NCBI GenBank assembly: GCA_018655525.1
Contig: JABIJM010000002.1
Location: forward strand, 109,575 to 173,574
Direction of reading: 5' to 3'
Origin: Candidatus Woesearchaeota archaeon
Lineage (GTDB): Archaea; Nanobdellota; Nanobdellia; Woesearchaeales; GW2011-AR9
Length of the DNA stretch: 64,000 bases
A program made the position numbers and the translations under genes. Positions 68-57,831 of the stretch are shown here, piece by piece. The notes beneath the pieces are model-generated. The model was not told where the DNA came from, made no database searches, and saw nothing but the letters and a program-made list of their open reading frames with translations. Each line of letters opens with the position of its first letter. Position 1 is the stretch's first letter.

Positions 68-2410
68 ATGGTGAACAAAATAGACGTTTTTAGTCGTACT
101 ACTCGCAAAGCTAATTCTAAGAAAGGTCAGGTTACGGTTTTCATCATAATTGGAATCATTTTAGTCTTTGTTACTGCTGGAATTATATTCATAACTCAGT
201 CTGCTTCTGATGCAGGATTAACTGCTTCTGGTGATCCAATCATTGAAGATGCTCCTCAAGAATTCCGTCCATTACAACAATTTATAGAAGGATGTGTACA
301 AGATACAGCTAAGAAAGGATTAATTACGCTTGGTGAACAAGGAGGGTACATCTCTCCAAAAGGAAAGTTCTCAGCATCAGAACCAACTGAATCAGATGGT
401 TTAAATCTTGAACCTTTGAAAGTTCCTTATTGGCATTACAATAGTAAACCTTCTTCAGCATCCACTGTTGTGTTCACATCTAAACAACCTAAATTATATG
501 CAAAAGATGATCCTGATTTTAGTATTGAAGTACAATTAGCTGATTATGTTGAAGCAAATTTAGATTCTTGTTATTCAACATTTGATTCATTTAAATCCCA
601 GGGTTTTCTTATTGAAACAGATAAAATAGATGACGTAACTGTGAAAGTAGCAACAGATACAGTCAATTTTTGGGTGAAACAAGATATCTCTGCAGAGAAA
701 GGGAGCGCTCGTCATGAAATGAATCAATATTTCATTAAAATCCCGTTACGTTTAAAACATTTTTATGAAGTCGCATCTGATTTAACAGAACAAGAATTAA
801 ATCAACAATATTTAGAAAATATTGGATTAAATAATTTGCAAACATATACATTAGCAGACACTTCCAAATTACCTCCTACAAATACTGTGACTTTTGCGGC
901 AGTTAGTACAAATTCATGGAGTACGCCATTAGTGAAAGAAGATATCAAAAATATGTTAACTTCAAATGTTCCATTAATCAGATATCAGAGTAGTGTAGAT
1001 TTTTACAGATTTGAGTTTCCAGAATCTGATAATCAAAAATTAATTCAGAAATCCTATGATAATATGATTCTTCCAATTACAAAAGCAAAAGGTGTAGAAG
1101 TTTCTTTTGATTATTATGGGTGGGAACCTTATTTAGATATCAATGGGGGCGAAGAAACAATTGAACCAGAAAATAACATTATTAAAAGCCCACTTCCCGT
1201 AATCCCCTTTAATTTTAATTTCCAAAGATATCACAACACTTACGATTTATCATATCCCGTTCTGGTTTCAGTTAGAGACCCTAAAGCATTTAGCGGAGAA
1301 GGATATACATTCAATTTTGCTTTAGAATCAAATATTGTAAATAATAGAGCAGCAGTTGCAGATTATATTCAACCTGCAGTTATTCAAAGTCTAAGCCCCT
1401 CAATGGTTTGTGATAAAAATAAAAGGGATACAGAACTAATTAGGACTGTTGTTGTTGACAGTTTTACAAAAGAACCTTTAGATTTAGTAAAAATTGGTTT
1501 TGATGTCCCAAATCAAGAATATTGTGATATAGGTGAAACAAATACGCAAGGAACATTAGATGCAAAATATCCTGCAGTTTATGGTGGAAATATTGATTTG
1601 GTAAAATCAAATTATTTGTCTGGGATTATGCCTGTAAATACGTATAATTATAAAGATCAAGAAGCTATTGTTGGATATGCTGTTGAAGGATTAAATCAGC
1701 CAGTTATTCAATTACATAAATTACATGACGTCAATTTCCGTGTTCAAAAAAAATCTTTTGAAAAATGTGTGACAGACGAAGATGGTGATGAAACATGCTT
1801 TTCACAAGGATTATTCTCAGAAAAATCTGAGAAACAAATCTCTTATGATCCAGAAATGTTAGAGGAAACCCATGGATGGTCCTTTATAGATTTAGCAAAA
1901 AATCTTGAAGATGATGAAACAGCAGCAGTAATCCTAAAACGTGTATCAGGCTTGAATAATAATATTATTGAAGATGATTTTTCCACAGTTGTAAATGTAC
2001 AAGGGAACAACGTTGCAAGATTAAAAATTGTGCCAGGGATTTATGAAGTTACTGCATACCTTACAGATGAATTAGGAATTTATATCCCAGAAAGTGAACG
2101 ATGTACACCTGGTGTCTTAGAAGCAATTGCCTGTGTAGATCTTGATGGATGTTGTGTAATGTTCCCAGATACTGAATTAAAAGAATTTATTGCGGGACGA
2201 GTTTCGTGGAAAACACCAGAAACTTACATTACCATCACGCCAGAACAATTATATACCTCACAAGAAATAATTATTACATTACCTTCATTAAATCTTCAAG
2301 GCGTTCCATTAAACAATAGGATTACTGAAGATTTACAAATCGTAGAAAATGTTGCAAAAGCTTCCGCTACTCCTGAAATTAGGAAAGCTTTAGACATTAT
2401 ATTTAGATAG
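68..2410 (+). CDS. Large surface protein with archaeal class III (type IV pilin-like) signal peptide
   Basis: N-terminus ...SKKG|QVTVFIIIGIILVFVTAGIIF is a basic leader, then G-Q, then about 20 hydrophobic residues. This is typical of substrates of the archaeal prepilin peptidase (PibD/EppA). It is paralogous to the 14998..16332 ORF over the signal and the following FIEGC...GGY region. It is the first gene of a tightly packed plus-strand operon. Confidence 0.55.
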   Translation: MVNKIDVFSRTTRKANSKKGQVTVFIIIGIILVFVTAGIIFITQSASDAGLTASGDPIIEDAPQEFRPLQQFIEGCVQDTAKKGLITLGEQGGYISPKGKFSASEPTESDGLNLEPLKVPYWHYNSKPSSASTVVFTSKQPKLYAKDDPDFSIEVQLADYVEANLDSCYSTFDSFKSQGFLIETDKIDDVTVKVATDTVNFWVKQDISAEKGSARHEMNQYFIKIPLRLKHFYEVASDLTEQELNQQYLENIGLNNLQTYTLADTSKLPPTNTVTFAAVSTNSWSTPLVKEDIKNMLTSNVPLIRYQSSVDFYRFEFPESDNQKLIQKSYDNMILPITKAKGVEVSFDYYGWEPYLDINGGEETIEPENNIIKSPLPVIPFNFNFQRYHNTYDLSYPVLVSVRDPKAFSGEGYTFNFALESNIVNNRAAVADYIQPAVIQSLSPSMVCDKNKRDTELIRTVVVDSFTKEPLDLVKIGFDVPNQEYCDIGETNTQGTLDAKYPAVYGGNIDLVKSNYLSGIMPVNTYNYKDQEAIVGYAVEGLNQPVIQLHKLHDVNFRVQKKSFEKCVTDEDGDETCFSQGLFSEKSEKQISYDPEMLEETHGWSFIDLAKNLEDDETAAVILKRVSGLNNNIIEDDFSTVVNVQGNNVARLKIVPGIYEVTAYLTDELGIYIPESERCTPGVLEAIACVDLDGCCVMFPDTELKEFIAGRVSWKTPETYITITPEQLYTSQEIIITLPSLNLQGVPLNNRITEDLQIVENVAKASATPEIRKALDIIFR

Positions 2411-2414
2411 AATA

Positions 2415-5400
2415 ATGAGTAAACAAAAAAAAGGTGTGTCTGTACTGATGATTTTCCTCATCTTAGTTTTACCAATCTATTCTGCACAAGTTCTTGCAGT
2501 GAATGTACAAATAAATACAAACACCGGATTAGCTGGTGTTGATGGATTCATTGATGCAACCGGAGATACATGGACTGTGCAAGCATTAGTTACAAGTCCA
2601 CCCACAGATGTGCAACCTGAAGATTTAATCTTACAAATTGGCACAAATTCTGCAAAATTCAATTCATGTGGTGATGATACATTAGGAAAATTATGTAAAT
2701 ATGAAAGCCCATTATCTGGTGGTGTGAAAGAAGGGTCACATCCATTCCAAGTAATCTATCAACCAGCAGGAGGCGCAGAATTAGCTTCAGATTCTAGTAT
2801 TATTACATCAGATGGATCTGGACCAACAATTTCAACAGTTAATGCATTTCAACAAGAAGGTGTTGTATTAATGACATTTACAGTTATTGAAGATGTTGAT
2901 GGGTCTGGAATCAAAAAAATAGAAATTTTAAATGCAAAATCAAGTGAAGTATTATTTACGAAAGAAATTCCTGCGAATACAAAAACCTATACATATAATG
3001 CAGAAGACGGAAAAATAGAACTACAAGGTGAAGGGCAACAGTATGTGAAAGTACGTGCAGAAGATAATCTTGGCCATGTATCTGTTTCTAATGTTGTTTC
3101 TTTCTCAGGAGACTTCGTTCCGCCTGTTATTATAGAAGATTCACTTGAATTAGTAGATTTAGGAAAATTTATCGGTCAATTTGAATCAACAACAGATATT
3201 TCTGTAAGTGTTAAAGAAAAAACAATTCCTCTTGTTACCGCATTATCAGAAGAAGCTAAAATTACAACTTCTGCAGAATGTGAAGATGATTTAACCGTTG
3301 TAGATTTATGGCATTGTACGTTTAAGAACGTGAAAGTATTTTCAGAGAGTAATACAGTGTCATTACAAGTGAAAGCCGTAGATTCAGCAGGTAATCAGGA
3401 TATAAAAACAATTACAAAGACATTAAGTAAAGATGCATCCTCACCAACTGTAAAATTCTTAGGAACAACACAAACATATAATGGGAAAAGTTTTATTAAA
3501 TCCGGTGAAAACAAAATTATTTTAATTGCAAGCGATGTTGGTTCCGGTGTAGATTTTAAATCTATTCGTGCTAATCTAAAAGGCATTGGGGGAGATTTAA
3601 GTATATCCCCAGATGCTTGTTATCAAGATGGAAAAGATACGATTTGTGTTTGGGAACAATCTAAAATATTTAGTTCTGATGAAATTATTCGTATTGGATT
3701 ATCACAGTTTAAAGATATTGCAGGAAATGAAGGAGATTTAAAAGAAGTAGAATTGTTTTCTGACATCTCAGAACCCAAAGTTGGAAAAATAGAAATCTAT
3801 GGTGGAGATAAAACATTCTTTCAAAGTAATGATCAATTAAAAATCAAAGTTAAGATTGCCGAAGAAAATGGATTACAAGTTCTTGTAAACCTAAATGATG
3901 TCGTGATGGATGCAGAAACTCTTTACCCTGCAACTGAGATCTCTGAAAAAGGATGGAAATTATTTACAGAAGAACAATGTACACGTCAAGATGGTGAAAC
4001 CGAATGGAATTGTGAATTTGTAACGGACACCATTAAATCAGGACCAGACATATTTAATTTGCAAGTAGCAGTTCATGATACTGCAGGAAATAATGCAGAA
4101 GAATGGGCGAAAAAACCCCTTAATGTAGAATCTGGTGATAAAGGAAATTATAGAATTAAGTTACTTGGATTAGATAGTGAAGCAAATCCAAATTATTGGG
4201 AAAAGTTATCTGCTGTACCTTTAGTAAAATTTGTAGATTTAGATACAACCAAATTAACACGTACCAGAATTCCATTTAATGTTCAATTTAAAAGTAAAAA
4301 AGCAAAAATGTTATCTTTAGATATTGTAGGATGTAAGCCTAAGGGTGAAAGTCCAGCTATCTCTAAAGGAAGTGTTAAGATTACAGAAAAAGGTTCAGGA
4401 GAAGATGTACCTTTGACAGAAAATCCTTCAGAAGAAGCTTCAAGTCTTCAATTAAGCCGTACATTAATAACTGGAAAGAACTTTCCAGGAGGAGATGTAT
4501 CACCAACATCCACAAAATTAATCATGGAATTCCAACCATTTGATGGTCATGAAATGTTTAATATTGGTGAAGAAGATGAATTTACAAAAGCAGAAGTAGA
4601 ATTTACATGTCAATTTAGATTATTCTCACAAGTTGGAAATTCTGCATTAAAAGCAGCAGAGATTCAAGAAATTGATGTAACTGTGCCATTTGCATTTTCT
4701 AAACTAGGTGCAGTTGATGAAAATATTGACAACAAAATACAAGATATCAAAGATGACATATGGTTTAAAATTCCAGATAGATTAGCAGTTGTTAATGACG
4801 TGTTGAAAATTGTAAGATATATTGGTCCGATTGTAAGTGTCTTGAAAAGTCTCAATGTTTTTTTTAACTTAGCCAATGGAAATATGGATGAAGTTAGAAC
4901 TTCCATTCCTGTTTATGGTCCTGCAGCTGCAATTAGTTCCTGTACAGCAACCGAAAATGTAATCCAAAAAGGATTGTGGGAAGGATTTGCAGTTTTTGAT
5001 GTAACTTTACAAGTATTATCATGTAACCCAGGACCTGCACCAACAACATGGTATGGAAAATATCAAAAAAATGTCTTAAATTTTTTTAATGCCTATAAAA
5101 GTCTTGGTATGAAACAAGATACAAGTTTATATGATAATATTTATTTATCATCGGCAGGATTATGTATTCCAGGCGTAATTCACAATTTAGAAAAATGGAG
5201 ACAAATTCAATGCATCCAGATAGATTGTTTACAAAACGTTGTTCCATCAGGAGCAGCAACAGTATCAAGCTGTGAAAAGATAAATGACATCTTAACATGT
5301 AAATATTTTACCGGAGAATTAGTTGGTATGTTTATCCCAATGACCGGATTAACAAAAGGAGTAAAAGATATGATTAAGGCAGCATTAACAAACCCAGTTG

Positions 5401-5606
5401 GTTTAGTCCGTGCAGGATTAACATTAGGTTGTTCGGCAAGTTGCGTTACATCAGGAACCGGCACAGCCTTCTGTGATTATGTTGGAATTGGAGTATTAGC
5501 AGTTGATACCATTGAAAATGTTATTGGATTAGTACAATCATACCCTACCATCAGTCAAGATTACTGCTCAAGAATAGGAGAAACAGGAACTAGTTTCCTC
5601 AGCTAA
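2415..5606 (+). CDS. Large secreted cysteine-rich surface protein (1063 aa)
   Basis: Starts 5 nt after the upstream stop. The N-terminal basic leader plus hydrophobic segment (MSKQKKGVSVLMIFLILVLPIYSAQVLA) is a Sec-type or class III-like signal. Sequence is Thr/Ser/Val-rich and beta-rich. The C-terminal 250 aa are Cys-rich. No catalytic motif recognised. Confidence 0.5.
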   Translation: MSKQKKGVSVLMIFLILVLPIYSAQVLAVNVQINTNTGLAGVDGFIDATGDTWTVQALVTSPPTDVQPEDLILQIGTNSAKFNSCGDDTLGKLCKYESPLSGGVKEGSHPFQVIYQPAGGAELASDSSIITSDGSGPTISTVNAFQQEGVVLMTFTVIEDVDGSGIKKIEILNAKSSEVLFTKEIPANTKTYTYNAEDGKIELQGEGQQYVKVRAEDNLGHVSVSNVVSFSGDFVPPVIIEDSLELVDLGKFIGQFESTTDISVSVKEKTIPLVTALSEEAKITTSAECEDDLTVVDLWHCTFKNVKVFSESNTVSLQVKAVDSAGNQDIKTITKTLSKDASSPTVKFLGTTQTYNGKSFIKSGENKIILIASDVGSGVDFKSIRANLKGIGGDLSISPDACYQDGKDTICVWEQSKIFSSDEIIRIGLSQFKDIAGNEGDLKEVELFSDISEPKVGKIEIYGGDKTFFQSNDQLKIKVKIAEENGLQVLVNLNDVVMDAETLYPATEISEKGWKLFTEEQCTRQDGETEWNCEFVTDTIKSGPDIFNLQVAVHDTAGNNAEEWAKKPLNVESGDKGNYRIKLLGLDSEANPNYWEKLSAVPLVKFVDLDTTKLTRTRIPFNVQFKSKKAKMLSLDIVGCKPKGESPAISKGSVKITEKGSGEDVPLTENPSEEASSLQLSRTLITGKNFPGGDVSPTSTKLIMEFQPFDGHEMFNIGEEDEFTKAEVEFTCQFRLFSQVGNSALKAAEIQEIDVTVPFAFSKLGAVDENIDNKIQDIKDDIWFKIPDRLAVVNDVLKIVRYIGPIVSVLKSLNVFFNLANGNMDEVRTSIPVYGPAAAISSCTATENVIQKGLWEGFAVFDVTLQVLSCNPGPAPTTWYGKYQKNVLNFFNAYKSLGMKQDTSLYDNIYLSSAGLCIPGVIHNLEKWRQIQCIQIDCLQNVVPSGAATVSSCEKINDILTCKYFTGELVGMFIPMTGLTKGVKDMIKAALTNPVGLVRAGLTLGCSASCVTSGTGTAFCDYVGIGVLAVDTIENVIGLVQSYPTISQDYCSRIGETGTSFLS

Positions 5607-5608
5607 AA

Positions 5609-8600
5609 ATGAAAAAACTAACCTTAATAATTGTACTTTTGCTTATGTTATCTAGTGTAGTCTACGCTGCAGAAGAAGTAGAAACAAATAATTGCGATGG
5701 ATTCTGGGGAAGCTTGAAATGCTTCTTAGTTGGGGATGCAGAGAATCGTGCTGGAATGAGTTGGTTTGATAGAAGCGAGAATTTAGTTGGTTTTGCTGGA
5801 GTTGTTCCAGATGGTTGGCAAAATAAACCTGCTGGAATTTATAAAGGTAAAGATGGAAAGTTATATGTTGTTGGTGTTGCTAAAAATAGAGGAATTGTTG
5901 ATCTTGCAAGAAAAGCAGCAATCGACAATGCAAAACAACAAATGGCAGAAGCAACAGGGGAATCTAATTTTAAATCAATAGCTCCAAATCAAAATTTTAA
6001 GGATGACAAGAATAAGTTATATAAAACCCTTATTGTAATTATTCCTGAAACTCCTGGGCAAAAAACTGATGTTCTAGCTTTAATGAAAAAAGTAGGAGAT
6101 AATGGTTATATGCCTACATTAGAAGATGTTCCAGTTTCACCACCGCAACCAACTCAACCTGATCAACCACAAGGTGCAACGTTGAATAAAGATTCCGTTC
6201 AATTAACTCCTAATGATTACAATACGAAGACTCCATTAACCAAAGACCAATATAAAGCTAAATTTCCAGATAATACTCCCGGTGATTATAATACTTATAG
6301 AAACATTTGGCCTTCTGTAAAATTTGAATCACAAGTAAAAAAGAATTATGATGTGAAGGATGTTAAAGTACAATCCTCAACATTAAATGGTGTGACAACA
6401 GGTCAAATAACAATCACAAAAAAAGATGGAACACAAGTTAAAATTCCTTATACTCGTGATTTAGATGATGATGTTGATAAGGGGAAGGATTTAGATCAAG
6501 TTGTGAATAAATATCTCAGTCAAAATTCAAATACTGCGAGTTTACCACCTAAATCATCTACACCTTCACCAATTGTTGTTCCACCTCTAACAAAAACTCC
6601 AACCTCCCAATCTGTATCCGCTCCAATAATTGTTCCTGCTAAAATTAAATCTGAAGTAAAAAATTCAGGAGCTCTTTCACTTTGTCAACCAACATCTCAA
6701 AAAGGATTATGTAGAGTTTCAGCGGGTGAATCTTTTAATATATTATACAAAGATGCTGAAGGAAACTTTAATCCAGTAACAAGCATCAAAGGAAAAGATA
6801 TTACTTATGATAAATCTAAAGGAACAACAGATCATACTAAAGTTACAGGAGCAGTTAATATCCTTGTTGCAAAGAAGGCTGGAGTGACAGGAGTTCCTGC
6901 AACTTCTGCACCGGTTGTTGTATCACCTACAGCACCAGCTGCACCTACCCCCGTTCCTCAAGTAATAAAGGATCTTGAAACTAAATGTAATAATGATGAT
7001 GCGAACGCTTGTTTTAATTTAGGTGTAAAATATGAATTTGGAGTTTCAGGTGTTGATAAAAATATTCCTAAATCCAAACAATTATTTAGAAAATCTTGTT
7101 TATTTGAATCTGGTGGTATAGCTTGTTCTAGTGCATTAGGTGTTGATTATGAGAACAAACCAAGTATCAAAACATATCAAGACAAATGGATCACTCAAAA
7201 ATGCCCTGATGGAGTATGTCCGACAGGAACAACGTGTATTGGAATAATTTCAAGCGGTAAATGTAAATCAAATGGAGAATTGACTGGTGAAACAGTCGCT
7301 GCAATGAAAGCAGATGTACAAACCGCTAACTTTGCTGAACCTGGAGCAGCAACACCAACTCCTTCACCAGTTCCCCCATCTTCAGCAGTACCTACACCTG
7401 CTCCTCAAACTCCAACTCAAATATCACCTGCACAAGTAGAAGCAGCAACACCACAACTAACTGATTCAGCAAAACAGATCTCAATTAAAAGTAATGGAGC
7501 TGGTGGGGCTGATATTTTGAAAAATAATGCTAAAATTACTGCTACACAAGGTGATATTACTGTAAATGGTGTTCGTCTTGATGGAGATAAAATAGTTGTT
7601 GATGCTACTAAAAAAATGTTATGGGGTGCCTATGATGGAACTGGAGACCTTGGAAGTTTTGAAAAGCAACCTGATGGTTCAGTCAAATTTATTCCTGGAG
7701 ATGATTATAATAAACTCGAAGGAGAACAAAGAACAGATTTTGATGAATTTAAGGACATGATGGTAAAAAGTCCGTCTGCTTTTAAGAAAGTTCAGGATAC
7801 AATTAAAAGTGATAGTATAGATGAAACAGTAACTGCACCAGAATTACGAGATGAAGCTAAGAAAGATGTAAAGGCAACTTTAGAAGCTAAGAAAAAAGCT
7901 GCGACTGGCGGTGATCCAACTAAACCTACTTCAGGAGAAAAAGCGAAAAAAATTTCACAAGCAGGTGGTCAAACTCCAGCTCCTACTCACGATAAAGTTA
8001 ATGAAAAACTTTTGAAGGAAGGAAAAGATCTCTATAAAAGGGGAAAAATTAAAGAAGCTGTTAAAAAGTTTGAAGAAGCTTGTGACAAAGGAAATGGCGC
8101 TTCCTGTGCAAATTTAGGTAATTTATATGGTTCTGGTTCCGCTGAAATTCCGAAAGATCAAGTCAAAGCTAATAGTTTATTCAAGAAAGCATGTGATGAT
8201 GGTACTGCTATTGCATGTAATTATTTAGGTGCAAATTATCAAGCCGGTGAAGGTATCACCAAGAACCAAGCTAAAGCTAATGAACTTTTTAAGAAAGGTT
8301 GTGAAAATGGTAACGCAGTTTCATGTAATAATCTCGCACAAAATTATTATCATGGGGATGGAGTTCCATCTGATTATGATAAAGCTAATAATCTTTTTGA
8401 AATTAGTTGTAATACAGGGAATGCAAATGCTTGTGCTTCTTTAGGATACAATTATCAAAAAGGTCTTGGTTATACTGTGAATAAAAATAAAGCTATGGAA
8501 CATTATGCTACATCTTGTAAATTAGGAGGAGATGATTCTTATTGTGCAGCAGCTGTAGGAATTACAGACGCTGATATTACAGGAGTAAAAAAATATAAAT

Positions 8601-10648
8601 CTAGTTGGATTGCAAATCATTGTACAAATGGAAAAAATTGTGATTCGCCTTGCATTGGTACAACAGCAAATGGAGTTTGCACTTCAAATGATGTATTAGA
8701 TCATAAAACAAATGCTGAGATACGAAAAGATGCTGAAGGAAGAGCACCAGCAACTGTTAAAAAGAATAAAAAGGGAGAAGGAGACTTAGGAAATTTAGGA
8801 AAAACTAGTAAAAATAGTCAACTCCCACCAATTACAAGTATTGCAACTGTTGGCATTACAGCTGCAGAAAAATCTAAGTTATTAAATGGTGGATTTAAAC
8901 TTGTAACATCAAGTGCAGGTAAAGTAACTTCTGAACTCAAAGGAGAAAACGGTGATCTCATCACACGTACGTGGGAAACAAATGGTGTGTTAGGAACCAA
9001 ATTCACAGAAAAAAAAGTAGAAAAAGGAAAACCAATCTCGGAAACAACAGAATTTATTGATAAAAATGGAAAAAAGGTTTATACACAAATTACAACAAAA
9101 GATGCAAAAGGAAATGATATCACAAAAGTAAATCATGAAAGTGGTATTTCCTTTAATCCAGATCCTGCAACATGGGATAAGAAAACGGGTTCATGTACAA
9201 AAGGAACTGCCTGTCTAAGAGCAACTTCTGGAGAATTTGCAGGACGTGCGCATTTACAAGCTTCTGAAAATGATTATGATCCCGTTCCATTTACGGTTGA
9301 AGAATTTGGTAAAGGAGATAACATTGAACGAACATTAAGTTATCAAATCATGATTGATGGTAAACTTGTTGAAATCAATGTAGATCAAGAATGTAATAAA
9401 GATTGTGATGCAGGAATAGAATCAGATGAAAGACAAGTAGGATATAAATTATTTACAGCAGATTATACTTCACATTCAACAGATTACACAACAGGAGAAA
9501 GAACTCACTATGAACGAAGCCAAGGATTATTTGGACAAATTCCAAATGGTGTTGGTGTAGGTTGTAATAAAGCTACAAAACAATGTGGTAAAAACTTTTA
9601 CTTTAGTTCTGATAATGATTATGTTTGTACAACACCTAAATGTACAAGTGAAAATGGTGTGGATTTAGATGAACAAGGTGCAGCTTTGGGTTCAGTGGTT
9701 TTAGAGGATGGAAAATTGGCTTCTGAAAAAGAACCAAAATGGCACCAATCAGTTTGTGGTTATGATAAAGCTTGTATTGAAGGTATTCAAGAAACAAACT
9801 CCGATAGATCAACACAACTATTCTTTGCAGGTAAACAAGAATGGCAACAAGCAGGAGCACAGATTCTTAATGGATTTAATGGATGGAGTGGAATCTCAAA
9901 TGCGTTAGTTGGTGATCTTTACGCAAATGAACTTGCATCAGATATTGACAGATGGTTTGCAGGTTCTATACTCTCAGAAGAATATTGGGAATCATCAGTA
10001 TGTTATGAAACGCCTGTAGACACACAGAATGACGGATTTGCATTCATTGAACGTCCGGGTGGAATTACTGGCACAGACTTCGTACCAGTTGCTGCGATTC
10101 AAGCAGAAATGTTTGAAGAGAAAACACCTTTATTATGTATGCATAATTTAGATGAAGAAGCAGAAGATGAATTTGTCTGTCCAAATAATTTATATTGCAA
10201 CCCAGATGACAGTTTCTGTTATGAAAATGAAGATGACGAAACACCAGTTAAAGCATATTTTTATAAAATCAGCTGGGGAGTTACAGCACCTTCAGATTTA
10301 GCATTCACACCATATGGAGATGAATCATCAGCTGTAGAGTTTGATTTAAAATTAGGTGATAAAAGATTAAATGATAAAACAATCAAACTGAAAAATGGTG
10401 AAACTGATAATAATCTGATTACACATTACAGTAATAATGATTATGAAAATGTTCAAGTATGTATCAAGTGGAAAAAAGCACCTATAACATATAGTCGTGG
10501 ATTTGGAAATAGTGGAACAGAACCCGTTAAAGATATTTGCTACACAATCAAAAAAGCAGAAATTGGAAATGTTATATTCACATCTGACACTGCAGCAGAA
10601 TCAGCTTCTGTAAACAATGGAGAAGTTACAATAAGTTCATCATGGTAA
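5609..10648 (+). CDS. Giant secreted protein (1679 aa) with Sel1-like repeat blocks, Cys-knot modules and Pro/Thr-rich linkers
   Basis: Signal peptide MKKLTLIIVLLLMLSSVVYA. Has P/T/Q-rich low-complexity linkers (PPQPTQPDQPQG; AATPTPSPVPPSSAVPTPAPQTPTQ). Two Sel1-like blocks carry paired Cys (xSCxNLGxxY...A/KxxLFKKxCxxG). Each block is followed by a short Cys-rich module (KCPDGVCPTGTTCIG... / HCTNGKNCDSPCIGT...). Starts 3 nt after the upstream ORF. Confidence 0.55.
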   Translation: MKKLTLIIVLLLMLSSVVYAAEEVETNNCDGFWGSLKCFLVGDAENRAGMSWFDRSENLVGFAGVVPDGWQNKPAGIYKGKDGKLYVVGVAKNRGIVDLARKAAIDNAKQQMAEATGESNFKSIAPNQNFKDDKNKLYKTLIVIIPETPGQKTDVLALMKKVGDNGYMPTLEDVPVSPPQPTQPDQPQGATLNKDSVQLTPNDYNTKTPLTKDQYKAKFPDNTPGDYNTYRNIWPSVKFESQVKKNYDVKDVKVQSSTLNGVTTGQITITKKDGTQVKIPYTRDLDDDVDKGKDLDQVVNKYLSQNSNTASLPPKSSTPSPIVVPPLTKTPTSQSVSAPIIVPAKIKSEVKNSGALSLCQPTSQKGLCRVSAGESFNILYKDAEGNFNPVTSIKGKDITYDKSKGTTDHTKVTGAVNILVAKKAGVTGVPATSAPVVVSPTAPAAPTPVPQVIKDLETKCNNDDANACFNLGVKYEFGVSGVDKNIPKSKQLFRKSCLFESGGIACSSALGVDYENKPSIKTYQDKWITQKCPDGVCPTGTTCIGIISSGKCKSNGELTGETVAAMKADVQTANFAEPGAATPTPSPVPPSSAVPTPAPQTPTQISPAQVEAATPQLTDSAKQISIKSNGAGGADILKNNAKITATQGDITVNGVRLDGDKIVVDATKKMLWGAYDGTGDLGSFEKQPDGSVKFIPGDDYNKLEGEQRTDFDEFKDMMVKSPSAFKKVQDTIKSDSIDETVTAPELRDEAKKDVKATLEAKKKAATGGDPTKPTSGEKAKKISQAGGQTPAPTHDKVNEKLLKEGKDLYKRGKIKEAVKKFEEACDKGNGASCANLGNLYGSGSAEIPKDQVKANSLFKKACDDGTAIACNYLGANYQAGEGITKNQAKANELFKKGCENGNAVSCNNLAQNYYHGDGVPSDYDKANNLFEISCNTGNANACASLGYNYQKGLGYTVNKNKAMEHYATSCKLGGDDSYCAAAVGITDADITGVKKYKSSWIANHCTNGKNCDSPCIGTTANGVCTSNDVLDHKTNAEIRKDAEGRAPATVKKNKKGEGDLGNLGKTSKNSQLPPITSIATVGITAAEKSKLLNGGFKLVTSSAGKVTSELKGENGDLITRTWETNGVLGTKFTEKKVEKGKPISETTEFIDKNGKKVYTQITTKDAKGNDITKVNHESGISFNPDPATWDKKTGSCTKGTACLRATSGEFAGRAHLQASENDYDPVPFTVEEFGKGDNIERTLSYQIMIDGKLVEINVDQECNKDCDAGIESDERQVGYKLFTADYTSHSTDYTTGERTHYERSQGLFGQIPNGVGVGCNKATKQCGKNFYFSSDNDYVCTTPKCTSENGVDLDEQGAALGSVVLEDGKLASEKEPKWHQSVCGYDKACIEGIQETNSDRSTQLFFAGKQEWQQAGAQILNGFNGWSGISNALVGDLYANELASDIDRWFAGSILSEEYWESSVCYETPVDTQNDGFAFIERPGGITGTDFVPVAAIQAEMFEEKTPLLCMHNLDEEAEDEFVCPNNLYCNPDDSFCYENEDDETPVKAYFYKISWGVTAPSDLAFTPYGDESSAVEFDLKLGDKRLNDKTIKLKNGETDNNLITHYSNNDYENVQVCIKWKKAPITYSRGFGNSGTEPVKDICYTIKKAEIGNVIFTSDTAAESASVNNGEVTISSSW
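7990..8540 (+). repeat. Four tandem ~36-aa Sel1-like repeats with paired cysteines (coding repeats inside the 1679-aa protein)
   Basis: The four repeat units are GNGASCANLGNLYGSGSAEIPKDQVKANSLFKKACDD, GTAIACNYLGANYQAGEGITKNQAKANELFKKGCEN, GNAVSCNNLAQNYYHGDGVPSDYDKANNLFEISCNT and GNANACASLGYNYQKGLGYTVNKNKAMEHYATSCKL. The periodicity and Cys pairing match the Helicobacter Hcp-type Sel1-like repeat family. A shorter block lies at about 6985-7150. Confidence 0.5.
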
Positions 10649-54751: not shown

Positions 54752-55462
54752 ATGCAACTAGATTCCTTTATCACATTCCTTAAAACATTAGAAAAAGACA
54801 ACGATCTTTTTCGCGTAAAGACAGTAGAAATGGATCTTAAAGGCATGTTGAATCCGACGAATGTATTAGATGATTTATTCTTTAAACAACAAAAATGGTT
54901 AGGATTTGATGAATTCTATTTGTATTATGTGCAGAAATTTTCTGAGCAATTAATTCGGAAATTTAATCCTACAAATATTGAGAATTTCAGATTGGGTTTG
55001 AAAGCAAGATTATATAGAACACAATTTGGATTTCTTACAGAATATCAAGCATTCTTGTTAGCTAAAGAAATCTTTGGTGATGTTGTACGAGATATTGCAT
55101 TAGATAAGAGAGGTGTTGATTTTCAAATTACATATAATGGAAAGAAATATAACATCCACATATTCGTTGATACTTCTAGAAGCTGGTTTTATAGAAATTT
55201 TAAATCACAACATAAACATGTTGAATCAGTTGAAGGGATACATGTGAATCTTCCATATGCGCTTGAAACAAACAAATTTAATTCGTTGATGTATTTACCA
55301 AATGGATTTGGGATCTATACAAAGGAGTATTTTGAACATTTCAAGAAAGAAATTGATTCTGGGAACTTGAAGAAGATTATTGGAACGAAGGATGACGGAT
55401 TTATTTATGAAGAATCCCTCGCCCTAACTTCACATACTCTTTATTCAACTCAAACGCGATAA
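54752..55462 (+). CDS. Hypothetical protein; candidate type II restriction endonuclease partner of the adjacent methyltransferase
   Basis: It is convergent with the MTase gene and their 3' ends overlap. A possible PD-(D/E)xK-like segment is (LDKRGVDFQITYNGKKYNIHIFVD). The assignment is by context only. Confidence 0.3.
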   Translation: MQLDSFITFLKTLEKDNDLFRVKTVEMDLKGMLNPTNVLDDLFFKQQKWLGFDEFYLYYVQKFSEQLIRKFNPTNIENFRLGLKARLYRTQFGFLTEYQAFLLAKEIFGDVVRDIALDKRGVDFQITYNGKKYNIHIFVDTSRSWFYRNFKSQHKHVESVEGIHVNLPYALETNKFNSLMYLPNGFGIYTKEYFEHFKKEIDSGNLKKIIGTKDDGFIYEESLALTSHTLYSTQTR

Positions 55463-56240
55463 AATCTATTCCTAATTTCTTTGCAACAACACATTCACTT
55501 CCGCTTCCTGCAAATGGAATTAATACAACACTATTATCTGCTTTAGAAGACATCAACAATCTCTTCGTAAGTTCCATTGGCTTCTGAGTCGGATGTTTCA
55601 AGACATCATGTTCTTTGTGATTTTTTAATTCTTTAGAAGCATAGACTTTTTTACAAGATCTACAAAGGAACCATCTCTCGGATGCACCTGCACCTCCTGC
55701 TAATGCGGATACTTTCAACACATCTCTTGGTAAGGCTCCTCTTTTATGTGCTTTGTAGATTGTTTCTTTGCCATTCTTACTGAATCTTCCAACAGTTCCT
55801 TTCCGTACTTTTCCTGCTGCATTATTCAAAAAGGAAGCTGTATAAGGTTCGCGAACAGCATCTCTGTTAAAGGTGGGAGCATCTTTCCAACAACAGATAA
55901 TGGATTCATGAGATCTCTGCCAGAAGTTTAAGGAAGGAATATTTTTATTTGTATAATGCCAAATTAACCATCTCTTTTGTAATGGTATCCTTACAGAAAG
56001 ATGTGCAAGAATTTCAGAAAAACCGTAAATGTACATTGTTCCTGTTGGTTTTAAAACACGTGTTGCTTCTGCAATCCATTTTTCTGACCATGTTAAATAT
56101 TCTTTGAGATCTTTCCTAATCGTAACACCGAAGTCCTTACCGATGTTGTATGGAGGATCTGCGATAATGATGTCTACAGAATGGTCTTTCAATTTCTTGA
56201 AGCCTTTGAGAACATCTATGTGGTGGATTTTGTTGAGCAT
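55401..56240 (-). CDS. DNA methyltransferase (N6-adenine/N4-cytosine, beta class)
   Basis: DPPY catalytic motif (IIIADPPYNIG) near the N-terminus and the AdoMet-binding FAGSGS near the C-terminus. This is the beta-class motif order (IV before I). Confidence 0.8.
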   Translation of the reverse strand: MLNKIHHIDVLKGFKKLKDHSVDIIIADPPYNIGKDFGVTIRKDLKEYLTWSEKWIAEATRVLKPTGTMYIYGFSEILAHLSVRIPLQKRWLIWHYTNKNIPSLNFWQRSHESIICCWKDAPTFNRDAVREPYTASFLNNAAGKVRKGTVGRFSKNGKETIYKAHKRGALPRDVLKVSALAGGAGASERWFLCRSCKKVYASKELKNHKEHDVLKHPTQKPMELTKRLLMSSKADNSVVLIPFAGSGSECVVAKKLGIDFIAFELNKEYVKLGRGILHK

Positions 56241-56351
56241 GGTTATTTTAGAGATAGGAGGTATAAATAGTTTGTTGTAATCTAATAGATTCTAAAAACT
56301 AATGATTCAAATAAATATATGTTTAAATATTGAATCAGATAAATCAAATAT

Positions 56352-56642
56352 ATGACTGATGAACCATTATATGAAGATAAAAATATTAAAATTGATTATC
56401 ATCCTACATCTGGAGAAGATCATTTTATAGAATTTGGTAGTTTTAGATACACTTTAGCAAGAGGTGTATTAGAAGATTTTGCAAGAGTTCCAAGAGAACA
56501 TTTAGTAGGAAGAATTGAAACATACAATTCTATGATTTTAGGTGGATTAGGAAGAAGTGATGTTGGTATTGACGGTTTGTATGATGCTTTATGTCAAGCT
56601 TATGCAGAAGAAGGACGTAGAATTAGAGCATATGTTCCTTGA
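56352..56642 (+). CDS. Hypothetical small protein
   Basis: ORF with slightly higher GC than its surroundings. Confidence 0.25.
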   Translation: MTDEPLYEDKNIKIDYHPTSGEDHFIEFGSFRYTLARGVLEDFARVPREHLVGRIETYNSMILGGLGRSDVGIDGLYDALCQAYAEEGRRIRAYVP

Positions 56643-56951
56643 TTAATGTATTCTGTAAGAATTAACAGAAAAATGAGAACCAGCAATATCTGCTTCCTGT
56701 GTTGAATCATAAACTATTCCTGCACCTCTTAGTAAACGAGGCATAGCTTCACTGAATGCAGCATCTCTGTCATGAGGAGGAAAATCTTTTTTTCTTTGTG
56801 TATACCAACTTAAATGTGCATCAACAATTTTAATTGCAGAATCAATTGCATCTGGAATCGTTTCTCCTTGACCACAAAGAGCATAACCTGTATGAGCAAT
56901 ATAAAGAGTTCTATCCCAACTTCTTTGTACTACAACATCAAGGTGTGGCAT
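56643..56951 (-). CDS. HicB/UPF0150-like small protein (possible antitoxin)
   Basis: YIAHTGYALCGQGETIPDAIDSAIKIVDAHL resembles the HicB N-terminal domain. The start is taken at the internal Met; the six-frame ORF extends to 57023. Confidence 0.3.
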   Translation of the reverse strand: MPHLDVVVQRSWDRTLYIAHTGYALCGQGETIPDAIDSAIKIVDAHLSWYTQRKKDFPPHDRDAAFSEAMPRLLRGAGIVYDSTQEADIAGSHFSVNSYRIH

Positions 56952-57030
56952 ATATAATAAGGAAGAGATTATATTTATAAATATTTCCAAACCCAAAACA
57001 ATTAAATAGTTCAAAGTTCGCATAACTTCT

Positions 57031-57831
57031 ATGAATCAATTGATTACCGAACTTAAGCTACGTGGATTTTCTAAGCAAACGGTAAAAACATATCTGTTAC
57101 AAAATAAATTATTTCTCAAACATATAAACAAAGAAGAAGCAGATATTACAGAAGCTGATGTTAAATCGTATCTTGGATATTTAATTTCAGATAAACAAAT
57201 GGAAATGTCTTCTGTTGCTCTTGCTAAAGCTGCATTGAAATTTTATTATGATGAAATTCTTGGAAAAAATATTGTTACATTGAAAACACCAAAGATTGCA
57301 CGAAAGTTACCAGAAGTATTAACGAAAGACGAAGTTAAGTTATTATTAAAGGCTGTGACACATACAAAAAGCAGGATTATTATCAAACTTTTGTATTCTT
57401 CCGGCATCCGTTTATCTGAATGTTTAAACATCAAAATTAAGGATTTAAATTTGAAGGAGAAGTATGGATGGGTCCGTGGTGGTAAAGGTGGGAAAGATCG
57501 GATGTTTATTTTGTCGGAAGATGTGTGTGATGAATTATGGAAATACACCCTTCAAAGACAGGGATTTGTCTTCCAAGGAAAGAATGGCGCATTATCACCA
57601 AGAAATGTACAGAAGATTGTACGAAAAGCTGCAGAGAAAGCTGGAATCAATAAAATCATCACACCACATAAATTACGTCATTCCTTTGCAACACATTTAT
57701 TGGAAGCTGGAACCGACATAAGAATCATTCAAGAATTGTTAGGACATTCTAATTTACAAACGACTCAAATTTATACGAAAGTTTCTCAGGAACAAATGAA
57801 GAAAGTGAGAAGTCCTTTGGATATGTTGTAG
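57031..57831 (+). CDS. Tyrosine recombinase (XerA/XerC/XerD-like integrase)
   Basis: The C-terminal catalytic region HKLRHSFATHLLEAGTDIRIIQELLGHSNLQTTQIYTKV carries the R..H..R..Y signature elements. It has an N-terminal SAM-like domain and is 266 aa long. Confidence 0.8.
   Translation: MNQLITELKLRGFSKQTVKTYLLQNKLFLKHINKEEADITEADVKSYLGYLISDKQMEMSSVALAKAALKFYYDEILGKNIVTLKTPKIARKLPEVLTKDEVKLLLKAVTHTKSRIIIKLLYSSGIRLSECLNIKIKDLNLKEKYGWVRGGKGGKDRMFILSEDVCDELWKYTLQRQGFVFQGKNGALSPRNVQKIVRKAAEKAGINKIITPHKLRHSFATHLLEAGTDIRIIQELLGHSNLQTTQIYTKVSQEQMKKVRSPLDML

Follow-up and report, generated by a model that had tools for sequence, protein, structure and literature searches.

A putative TaqI-family restriction-modification system beside xerA on a Woesearchaeota chromosome

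Closest described systems and the locus under study

The TaqI system of Thermus aquaticus, in which R.TaqI cuts T^CGA and M.TaqI modifies the same site to TCG(m6)A, is the closest well-described reference for the locus reported here. We analyzed a 64,000-nucleotide stretch of a Candidatus Woesearchaeota genome (contig JABIJM010000002.1; 32% guanine-cytosine (GC) content, 0.322), referred to as the window, which carries a putative restriction-modification (R-M) pair, the endonuclease gene R236 and the methyltransferase gene M279, next to the tyrosine recombinase gene xerA. R236 falls into the same Pfam family as R.TaqI (PF09573) and, like it, would be a small, free-standing Type IIP endonuclease of comparable size, TaqI itself having 263 amino acids (aa; PMC5587805). 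The likeness extends to the probable target TCGA, to which the genome-wide avoidance of this tetramer in the window and its clade points, and to the modification, which is probably N6-adenine methylation. In contrast, M279 is a predicted beta-class enzyme (PF01555, with DPPY ahead of FxGxG), whereas M.TaqI is a gamma-class NPPY methyltransferase (PMC4081073). Furthermore, the subfamily of R236 is shorter (~228 aa), aligns with only the first ~158 of the 229 model positions and appears to carry H-x-F on the second core strand, where one would look for the canonical (D/E)xK. A convergent, overlapping arrangement of the genes and a mesophilic, AT-rich DPANN archaeon as host set the present system further apart from that of TaqI.

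A beta-class methyltransferase acting on TCGA is on record from Helicobacter pylori, where M.HpyAX and M.Hpy99VII (hp0260 and jhp0244), to which M279 is likened by class and description, are Type IIP enzymes producing TCG(m6)A (PMC3936762). TaqI-family pairs also occur in Bacteroidota and Saccharibacteria, e.g., in Porifericola rhodea (CP119421.1), with endonucleases 50-57% identical to R236 and an adjacent PF01555 methyltransferase. These pairs differ from ours in their arrangement, which is a tandem of R followed by M in Porifericola and M-x-R in Saccharibacteria. In respect to the recombinase, the nearest characterized proteins are XerA of Pyrococcus abyssi (PAB0255, structure 4a8e) and its counterpart from Thermoplasma acidophilum (5hxy), which are similar to the window protein over the full length and share with it a SAM-like N-terminal domain and a catalytic domain with the R/HxxR/H/Y residues. 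As in Thermococcales, no dif site adjoins xerA (PMC2958812). A difference is that the gene of the window lineage shows presence and absence at the locus among close relatives.

Considering all data together, we regard it as highly likely that the locus represents a long-resident, chromosomal TaqI-family Type IIP R-M system beside XerA and not a recent mobile cassette. A preliminary description of the region had listed five open reading frames (ORFs), all of which are present in the ORF list with exactly reproduced coordinates.

Endonuclease, methyltransferase and probable target

R236 (54752..55462, plus strand, 236 aa) matched the Pfam model RE_TaqI (PF09573) with 38 bits over residues 4-145, the gathering score being 26.1, and was also matched by the Type II restriction endonuclease model of PADLOC. 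A search of 5.8 billion proteins yielded 141 homologues, nearly all of them 224-240 aa and typically ~228 aa long, with PF09573 being present in all but two of those listed. The closest ones (81-99% identity) originate from Woesearchaeota metagenomes, and Bacteroidota, Saccharibacteria and other groups contribute a large set at 46-57% identity, in which several proteins bear the name "TaqI family restriction endonuclease". Alignment of 19 diverse family members revealed 48 invariant positions with the blocks GLxARLYRTQ, LTEY, GVDF, NIHIFVD, YRxxK and HVNLPY, all of which are found in the window copy. The AlphaFold model built on this alignment reached a predicted local distance difference test score (pLDDT) of 89.1 and a predicted TM-score (pTM) of 0.84, and only its last 14 residues, an unconserved tail overlapping M279, are disordered. 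The model predicts a PD-(D/E)XK-like nuclease fold; the TaqI family has been listed among the PD-(D/E)XK restriction endonucleases on the basis of mutagenesis evidence (PMC2441816). A sequence search of solved structures returned no match to R236, thus providing no TaqI-family structure for mapping the catalytic residues. Relatives of R236 were found in only 2 of 2.9 million viral contigs, and a scan against PHROGs assigned no family to R236 or to the small ORFs of the locus. Judged from its sequence, R236 is most plausibly a genuine member of the TaqI family paired with its methyltransferase, in agreement with the initial proposal of a cognate restriction endonuclease with a PD-(D/E)xK-like segment.

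The methyltransferase gene M279 (55401..56240, minus strand, 279 aa) matched PF01555 with 132.8 bits and the PADLOC model MTase_II with an E-value of 1.8e-48. Its motifs DPPY (residues 28-31), HPTQKP (at 216) and FAGSGS (243-248) place motif IV N-terminal to the FxGxG of motif I, an order corresponding to the beta-class permutation, as which M279 can be classified in line with the first reading of the ORF. Among solved structures, the closest relatives belong to the beta-class methyltransferases and include the adenine enzymes M.MboIIA, M.RsrI and CcrM; N4-cytosine enzymes gave far weaker matches. Both the DPPY motif and these closest solved relatives favor N6-adenine as the probable modification.

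The 3' ends of the convergent genes R236 and M279 overlap by 62 bp (55401..55462), in accordance with the overlap described at the outset. Relatives of the window genes were examined in fetched loci or contigs, designated by L-numbers. The convergent overlapping pair is likewise intact in L001, L002-L005 and L031, with an overlap of 32 bp where R is 228 aa long (L002-L005, L031) and of 86 bp in L001, and in L006 the two genes are parted by a three-gene insert. Overall, R and M have stayed together in five related Woesearchaeota lineages, of which four have flanking genes in common with the window. PF01555 methyltransferases are likewise found next to or near bacterial R homologues. These methyltransferases have 28% identity to M279 and align in the catalytic motifs only; therefore, they are uninformative on a shared specificity, and their distance implies that the methyltransferase partner was exchanged or has strongly diverged. 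No C-protein regulator is present beside the R-M pair. With a separately encoded endonuclease adjacent to its cognate methyltransferase, the pair would be classified as a Type II (Type IIP) system. A different arrangement was seen in a Saccharibacteria contig (L115:1124-4426), in which two TaqI-family ORFs of 227 and 244 aa stand tail to tail and adjoin a 401-aa PF01555 methyltransferase and a 215-aa uncharacterized ORF; such an arrangement may have arisen by duplication or represent a two-subunit form of the system.

The probable target was approached by tetramer counts, with expectations for all 256 tetramers derived from a second-order Markov model. Within the window, TCGA is the most depleted tetramer, with 23 occurrences observed versus 65 expected (observed/expected ratio, O/E, 0.35), the next lowest one having an O/E of 0.64. 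This depletion is independent of the flanking bases: the counts of the four palindromic NTCGAN hexamers agree with those expected from the number of TCGA sites, and consequently the tetramer itself is the avoided word. In the window and its close relatives, TCGA shows an O/E of 0.20-0.37 and is the lowest of the 16 palindromic tetramers, compared with an O/E of 0.53-1.32 and ranks from 2nd to 16th in 13 more distant Woesearchaeota loci. In those distant loci GATC is usually the lowest palindromic tetramer. Such clade-specific avoidance of TCGA would be the footprint expected of a long-resident TCGA-specific enzyme, and on the strength of sequence features the system is probably TCGA-specific with an m6A methyltransferase. 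As a side observation, GATC has an O/E of 0.06-0.5 in most distant Woesearchaeota contigs (L033, L038, L048, L072, L079, L090, L094 and others) and of 0.76 in the window. The strong avoidance of GATC in the distant contigs, compared with a mild one in the window, suggests that each clade is marked by resident R-M systems of its own specificity.

Following this reading, M279 would methylate the adenine of TCGA on both strands to give TCG(m6)A, and R236 would cleave unmethylated TCGA in incoming viral or other foreign DNA. The two genes would be transcribed convergently from separate promoters, and interference or antisense transcription might conceivably balance R against M. The system would have been inherited vertically in this Woesearchaeota clade for long enough to purge TCGA from its genomes.

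Gene order in relatives, XerA and the small reading frames

Selection on the R-M pair was assessed by the ratio of non-synonymous to synonymous substitution rates (dN/dS) between the window and four relatives. Values of 0.06-0.11 for R and 0.04-0.08 for M were obtained at a dS of 0.7-3.6, and the flanking DEAD helicase, ABC transporter and xerA genes range from 0.04 to 0.12. R and M resemble their neighbors in both dN/dS and dS, which means that selection has preserved the function of the two genes throughout a long period of divergence and that they have evolved as fast as these neighbors.

The gene order in the window reads DEAD helicase, R, M, orf96, orf102, xerA, ABC transporter, TrmB, orf218, o148 (a 148-aa ORF) and MTS (a small methyltransferase-fold gene). 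L031, whose xerA is 97% identical, shows DEAD, R, M and xerA. In L002, DHOdh and DEAD are followed by two small ORFs, then R and M, a gene for a ParE toxin preceded by a small ORF, probably ParD (L002:6943-7394), an orf96 homologue and xerA. In L006 the order is DEAD, R, an insert (L006:1437-3347) encoding a 177-aa protein, a helix-turn-helix plus Pol-beta nucleotidyltransferase protein and GrpB, then M, ABC, o148 and MTS; xerA with its leader is cleanly missing between M and the ABC transporter gene (L006:4277-4411). L001 carries R, M, a 143-aa ORF, o148, a 560-aa ORF and MTS. The comparison with related genomes proposed in the preliminary description thus places the R-M pair after the DEAD helicase in three contigs (L031, L002, L006) and ahead of o148 and MTS in two (L001, L006). 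The R-M pair is part of a syntenic chromosomal backbone, in an interval with many small indels, and synteny and conservation among relatives, which the same description had named as speaking against a cassette, are largely what was found.

A different R-M system lies directly upstream of xerA (89% identical) in L007 (367-2209) and L030 (3-899), where it is followed by xerA, a P-loop kinase, ABC, o148 and MTS. It comprises a 5-methylcytosine (m5C) methyltransferase (PF00145) and an R.HinP1I-family endonuclease present as two ORFs of 91 and 146 aa, a split that is probably due to a frameshift. GCGC has an O/E of 0.41 in these two contigs versus 0.99 in the window. The slot between M and xerA contains orf96 and orf102 in the window and ParDE with the orf96 homologue in L002, and is empty in L031. 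The interval from the DEAD helicase to the ABC transporter is a hotspot of small-scale indels; small defense and toxin-antitoxin (TA) genes would be gained and lost here via ordinary illegitimate recombination.

The recombinase encoded by xerA (57031..57831, plus strand, 266 aa) matched PF00589 with 149.9 bits, which upholds its original assignment as a tyrosine recombinase, and it is the only one in the window. With 262.8 bits against a cut-off of 220 it passed the NCBIfam equivalog recomb_XerA_Arch (NF040815), and it stayed below the NCBIfam cut-offs for integron integrase, XerC and XerD. Among solved structures, P. abyssi XerA (4a8e; 2.5e-51, residues 3-259) matched best, with the T. acidophilum structure 5hxy matching at 7.3e-42, and the catalytic residues R127, HxxR (213-216), H239 and Y248 are present. 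The gene evolves under a dN/dS of 0.07. Based on these sequence matches, the protein is best taken as the housekeeping archaeal XerA, predicted to resolve chromosome dimers and to be functionally unconnected to the R-M genes, so that the alternative originally offered for the recombinase holds. An integron integrase was considered and rejected, with TIGR02249 reaching 223 bits in two pieces against a cut-off of 265 and NF011946 reaching 155 against 435; no attC-like repeated inverted repeats were found. A dif search of the window (11-bp arms, 6-8 bp spacer, ≤1 mismatch) revealed no 11-6-11 repeat with ≤1 mismatch. Two candidates with 7-bp spacers, an A/T run and a site inside the ABC gene, were dismissed as not credible. 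Because the dif site of Thermococcales is not adjacent to xerA either, its absence next to the gene is uninformative.

The window xerA has ABC transporter, DEAD helicase and AlkD genes in its neighborhood according to Pfam. Among 80 metagenomic loci, for which the two nearest upstream ORFs were surveyed wherever upstream sequence was available (108 ORFs), the commonest families upstream of 40-57% identical xerA homologues were the ribosomal proteins S9 (11/108) and L13 (5/108), and within L032-L109 the homologues often adjoin the L13/S9 gene pair. These neighbors point to a chromosomal housekeeping setting of the gene and not to that of a mobile element. Two distant homologues have other neighbors, one adjoining an MvaI/BcnI-family restriction endonuclease with an N6_N4 methyltransferase, the other a HepT and nucleotidyltransferase pair.

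Homology 5' of xerA begins ~60 bp ahead of the ATG and includes a conserved non-coding 35-bp element (56992..57026, plus strand; CCCAAAACAATTAAATAGTTCAAAGTTCGCATAAC) directly 5' of the start codon. It has one variable position across the window, L031, L007, L030 and L002, with the dS of the genes beside it at ~1 and synonymous sites near saturation. Within the window it is single-copy, with 0 copies expected by chance, and among the fetched loci it was found only upstream of xerA and only in the close clade. It lacks inverted-repeat symmetry and may be a regulatory or binding site, promoter-proximal or 5'-untranslated-region control being presumed.

Two small ORFs separate M279 from this element. 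orf96 (56352..56642, plus strand, 96 aa) matched no family in Pfam, NCBIfam or PHROGs, and its best PADLOC hit was non-significant (E 0.013). It has three known homologues, two at 78% identity and that of L002 at ~63-66%, and a dN/dS of 0.36 relative to L002, which suggests a real but weakly constrained gene. The second ORF, first called as 126 aa (56643..57023, minus strand), is better read as 102 aa from 56951 (orf102, 56643..56951, minus strand), in accordance with the NCBI call HOD05_02965 and the start of its homologue. An exhaustive HMMER scan of 1.84 billion representatives returned one true homologue, P0125 (51% identity); it stems from another archaeon, where the genes on either side of it encode an ExoIII-like protein and a DNA ligase. 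P0126 (1460 aa) and P0127 (1040 aa) were discarded as repeat-inflated matches, with one-to-one phmmer E-values of ~0.3-0.6. Neither orf102 nor its homologue matched Pfam even at E≤10, and orf102 gave no NCBIfam, PADLOC or PHROG match. A relation to uL13 (PDB profile E 0.051), tempting because xerA often adjoins L13/S9, was rejected as a chance hit, orf102 matching no ORF of the fetched loci including L13.

Both small ORFs lie on a 714-bp segment (56250..56969) that is missing from L031, the closest relative, as one clean gap in the pairwise alignment, leaving M and xerA only 87 bp apart there; the segment is bounded by the 6-bp sequence AGAGAT (56250-56255 and 56964-56969). orf96 and orf102 are lineage-specific orphans on a local indel. 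Their supposedly elevated GC content was not confirmed, with values of 0.316 and 0.333 being average for the 67 called ORFs (mean 0.327, standard deviation 0.028; z -0.4 and +0.2) and the GC content at third codon positions (GC3) being low rather than high (0.062 and 0.134). The GC3 of orf96 (0.062, z = -2.1) is the lowest of the 67 window ORFs, with high GC at its first and second positions.

Alternative explanations and further observations

Several points weigh against TCGA as the plain target of a TaqI-like enzyme. The similarity to the Pfam model is modest and confined to residues 4-145, and H-x-F (NIHIF, residues 134-138) occupies the second core strand of the R236 model, a place at which the model and general knowledge of the fold would lead one to expect a canonical (D/E)xK, so that the active-site geometry may differ from that of TaqI. 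Moreover, with TaqI's own methyltransferase being gamma-class (PMC4081073), the pairing of R and M differs from the prototype. The specificity is deduced indirectly, from tetramer avoidance and family similarity, and TCGA is also depleted in L007/L030 and L016, short contigs that do not show the TaqI-type system. The depletion could thus reflect clade history or another enzyme, and the window covers 64 kb of the genome, other R-M systems possibly lying elsewhere. The R-M pair might then be real and recognize a related or longer site, with the depletion caused otherwise. We consider this unlikely: among the 256 tetramers no other deviates nearly as strongly as TCGA, the NTCGAN hexamers follow its count, it is only in the clade carrying the system that the depletion reaches its maximum and the first rank, and a beta-class methyltransferase for TCGA has its precedent in M.HpyAX.

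The region had further been interpreted as a small integrated defense or mobile cassette, and in its strongest form this would make 54.7-57.9 kb a recently integrated islet with the tyrosine recombinase as its integrase. Such a history might be read from the recombinase, R-M genes and small orphans standing side by side, from the varying content of the interval among relatives, and from the clean loss of xerA itself in L006. However, the suggested search for att-like direct repeats around the segment returned only short, AT-rich matches at chance level, no tRNA gene was found in the window, there is no phage signal for R or the small ORFs, and the composition check shows no step, with the GC and GC3 of the genes within ~2 standard deviations of window genes. 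The segment from R to xerA displays none of the tested signs of an island or mobile element (att repeats, tRNA, deviating composition, absence from relatives). In addition, the R-M pair sits among the same backbone genes in four lineages with divergence and constraint like its neighbors, the recombinase passes the XerA equivalog, xerA stays linked to ABC in L007/L030 despite a different R-M system upstream, and L031 retains R-M and xerA and loses only the small ORFs. A recent integration is accordingly extremely improbable. A further reading, in which the slot upstream of xerA is a preferred, integron-like landing site exchanging R-M and TA genes with participation of XerA or the 35-bp element, finds its impetus in the occupants near xerA (TaqI-type here, HinP1I-type plus m5C in L007/L030, ParDE in L002, MvaI/BcnI-type plus N6_N4 beside a distant XerA) and appears very doubtful to us. 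The small ORFs, for their part, could form a TA, addiction or defense module with a HicB-like orf102 within a composite defense islet. By eye, residues ~20-50 of orf102 (HTGYALCGQGETIPDAIDSAIKIVDAHLSW) resemble the N-terminal HicB/UPF0150 motif, a likeness that no tool reproduced; both ORFs form a presence/absence indel, and ParDE occupies the same slot in L002. The HicB/UPF0150-like call nevertheless found no backing from families, structure or a HicA partner: besides the missing Pfam match, a PDB profile search gave no HicB match to orf102, its AlphaFold model is unusable (pLDDT 54) with a mostly helical N-terminus, and no HicA-like ORF is adjacent in the window or beside P0125. orf96 and orf102 are also convergent and not operonic, and their homologues occur separately, that of orf96 without orf102 in L002 and that of orf102 alone among DNA-repair genes. 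We therefore judge a TA module to be quite improbable.

A long-resident TaqI-family system would add a DPANN-archaeal member to this restriction family, with a beta-class instead of a gamma-class methyltransferase, and provide a clean example of a resident R-M system leaving a clade-specific TCGA footprint in a very small genome of the symbiont type. R236 could represent a mesophilic enzyme cutting TCGA. In a wider context, the locus illustrates how DPANN chromosomes are shaped by small-scale acquisition and loss of genes in the surroundings of a stable R-M pair and xerA. No new kind of system is revealed, the only mild oddities being the purge of TCGA and the varied R-M and TA genes beside xerA.

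Outside the R-M pair and xerA, three consecutive very large ORFs of 780, 1063 and 1679 aa occupy window positions 68-10648, the 780-aa ORF at the window start being without a Pfam match at 1e-8, and an Rfam scan of 52-61 kb returned no RNA family match. The window sequence is identical in the Candidatus Woesearchaeota metagenome-assembled genome GCA_018672075.1 (contig JABHGL010000059.1; locus tags HOD05_02965 and HOD05_02970), and the identical gene order recurs in >20 contigs of the same population from several samples. In one variant of this strain (L023:3046-4329), the DEAD-box helicase gene 5' of R is broken into ORFs of 94 and 306 aa, reflecting either a frameshift or an assembly error.

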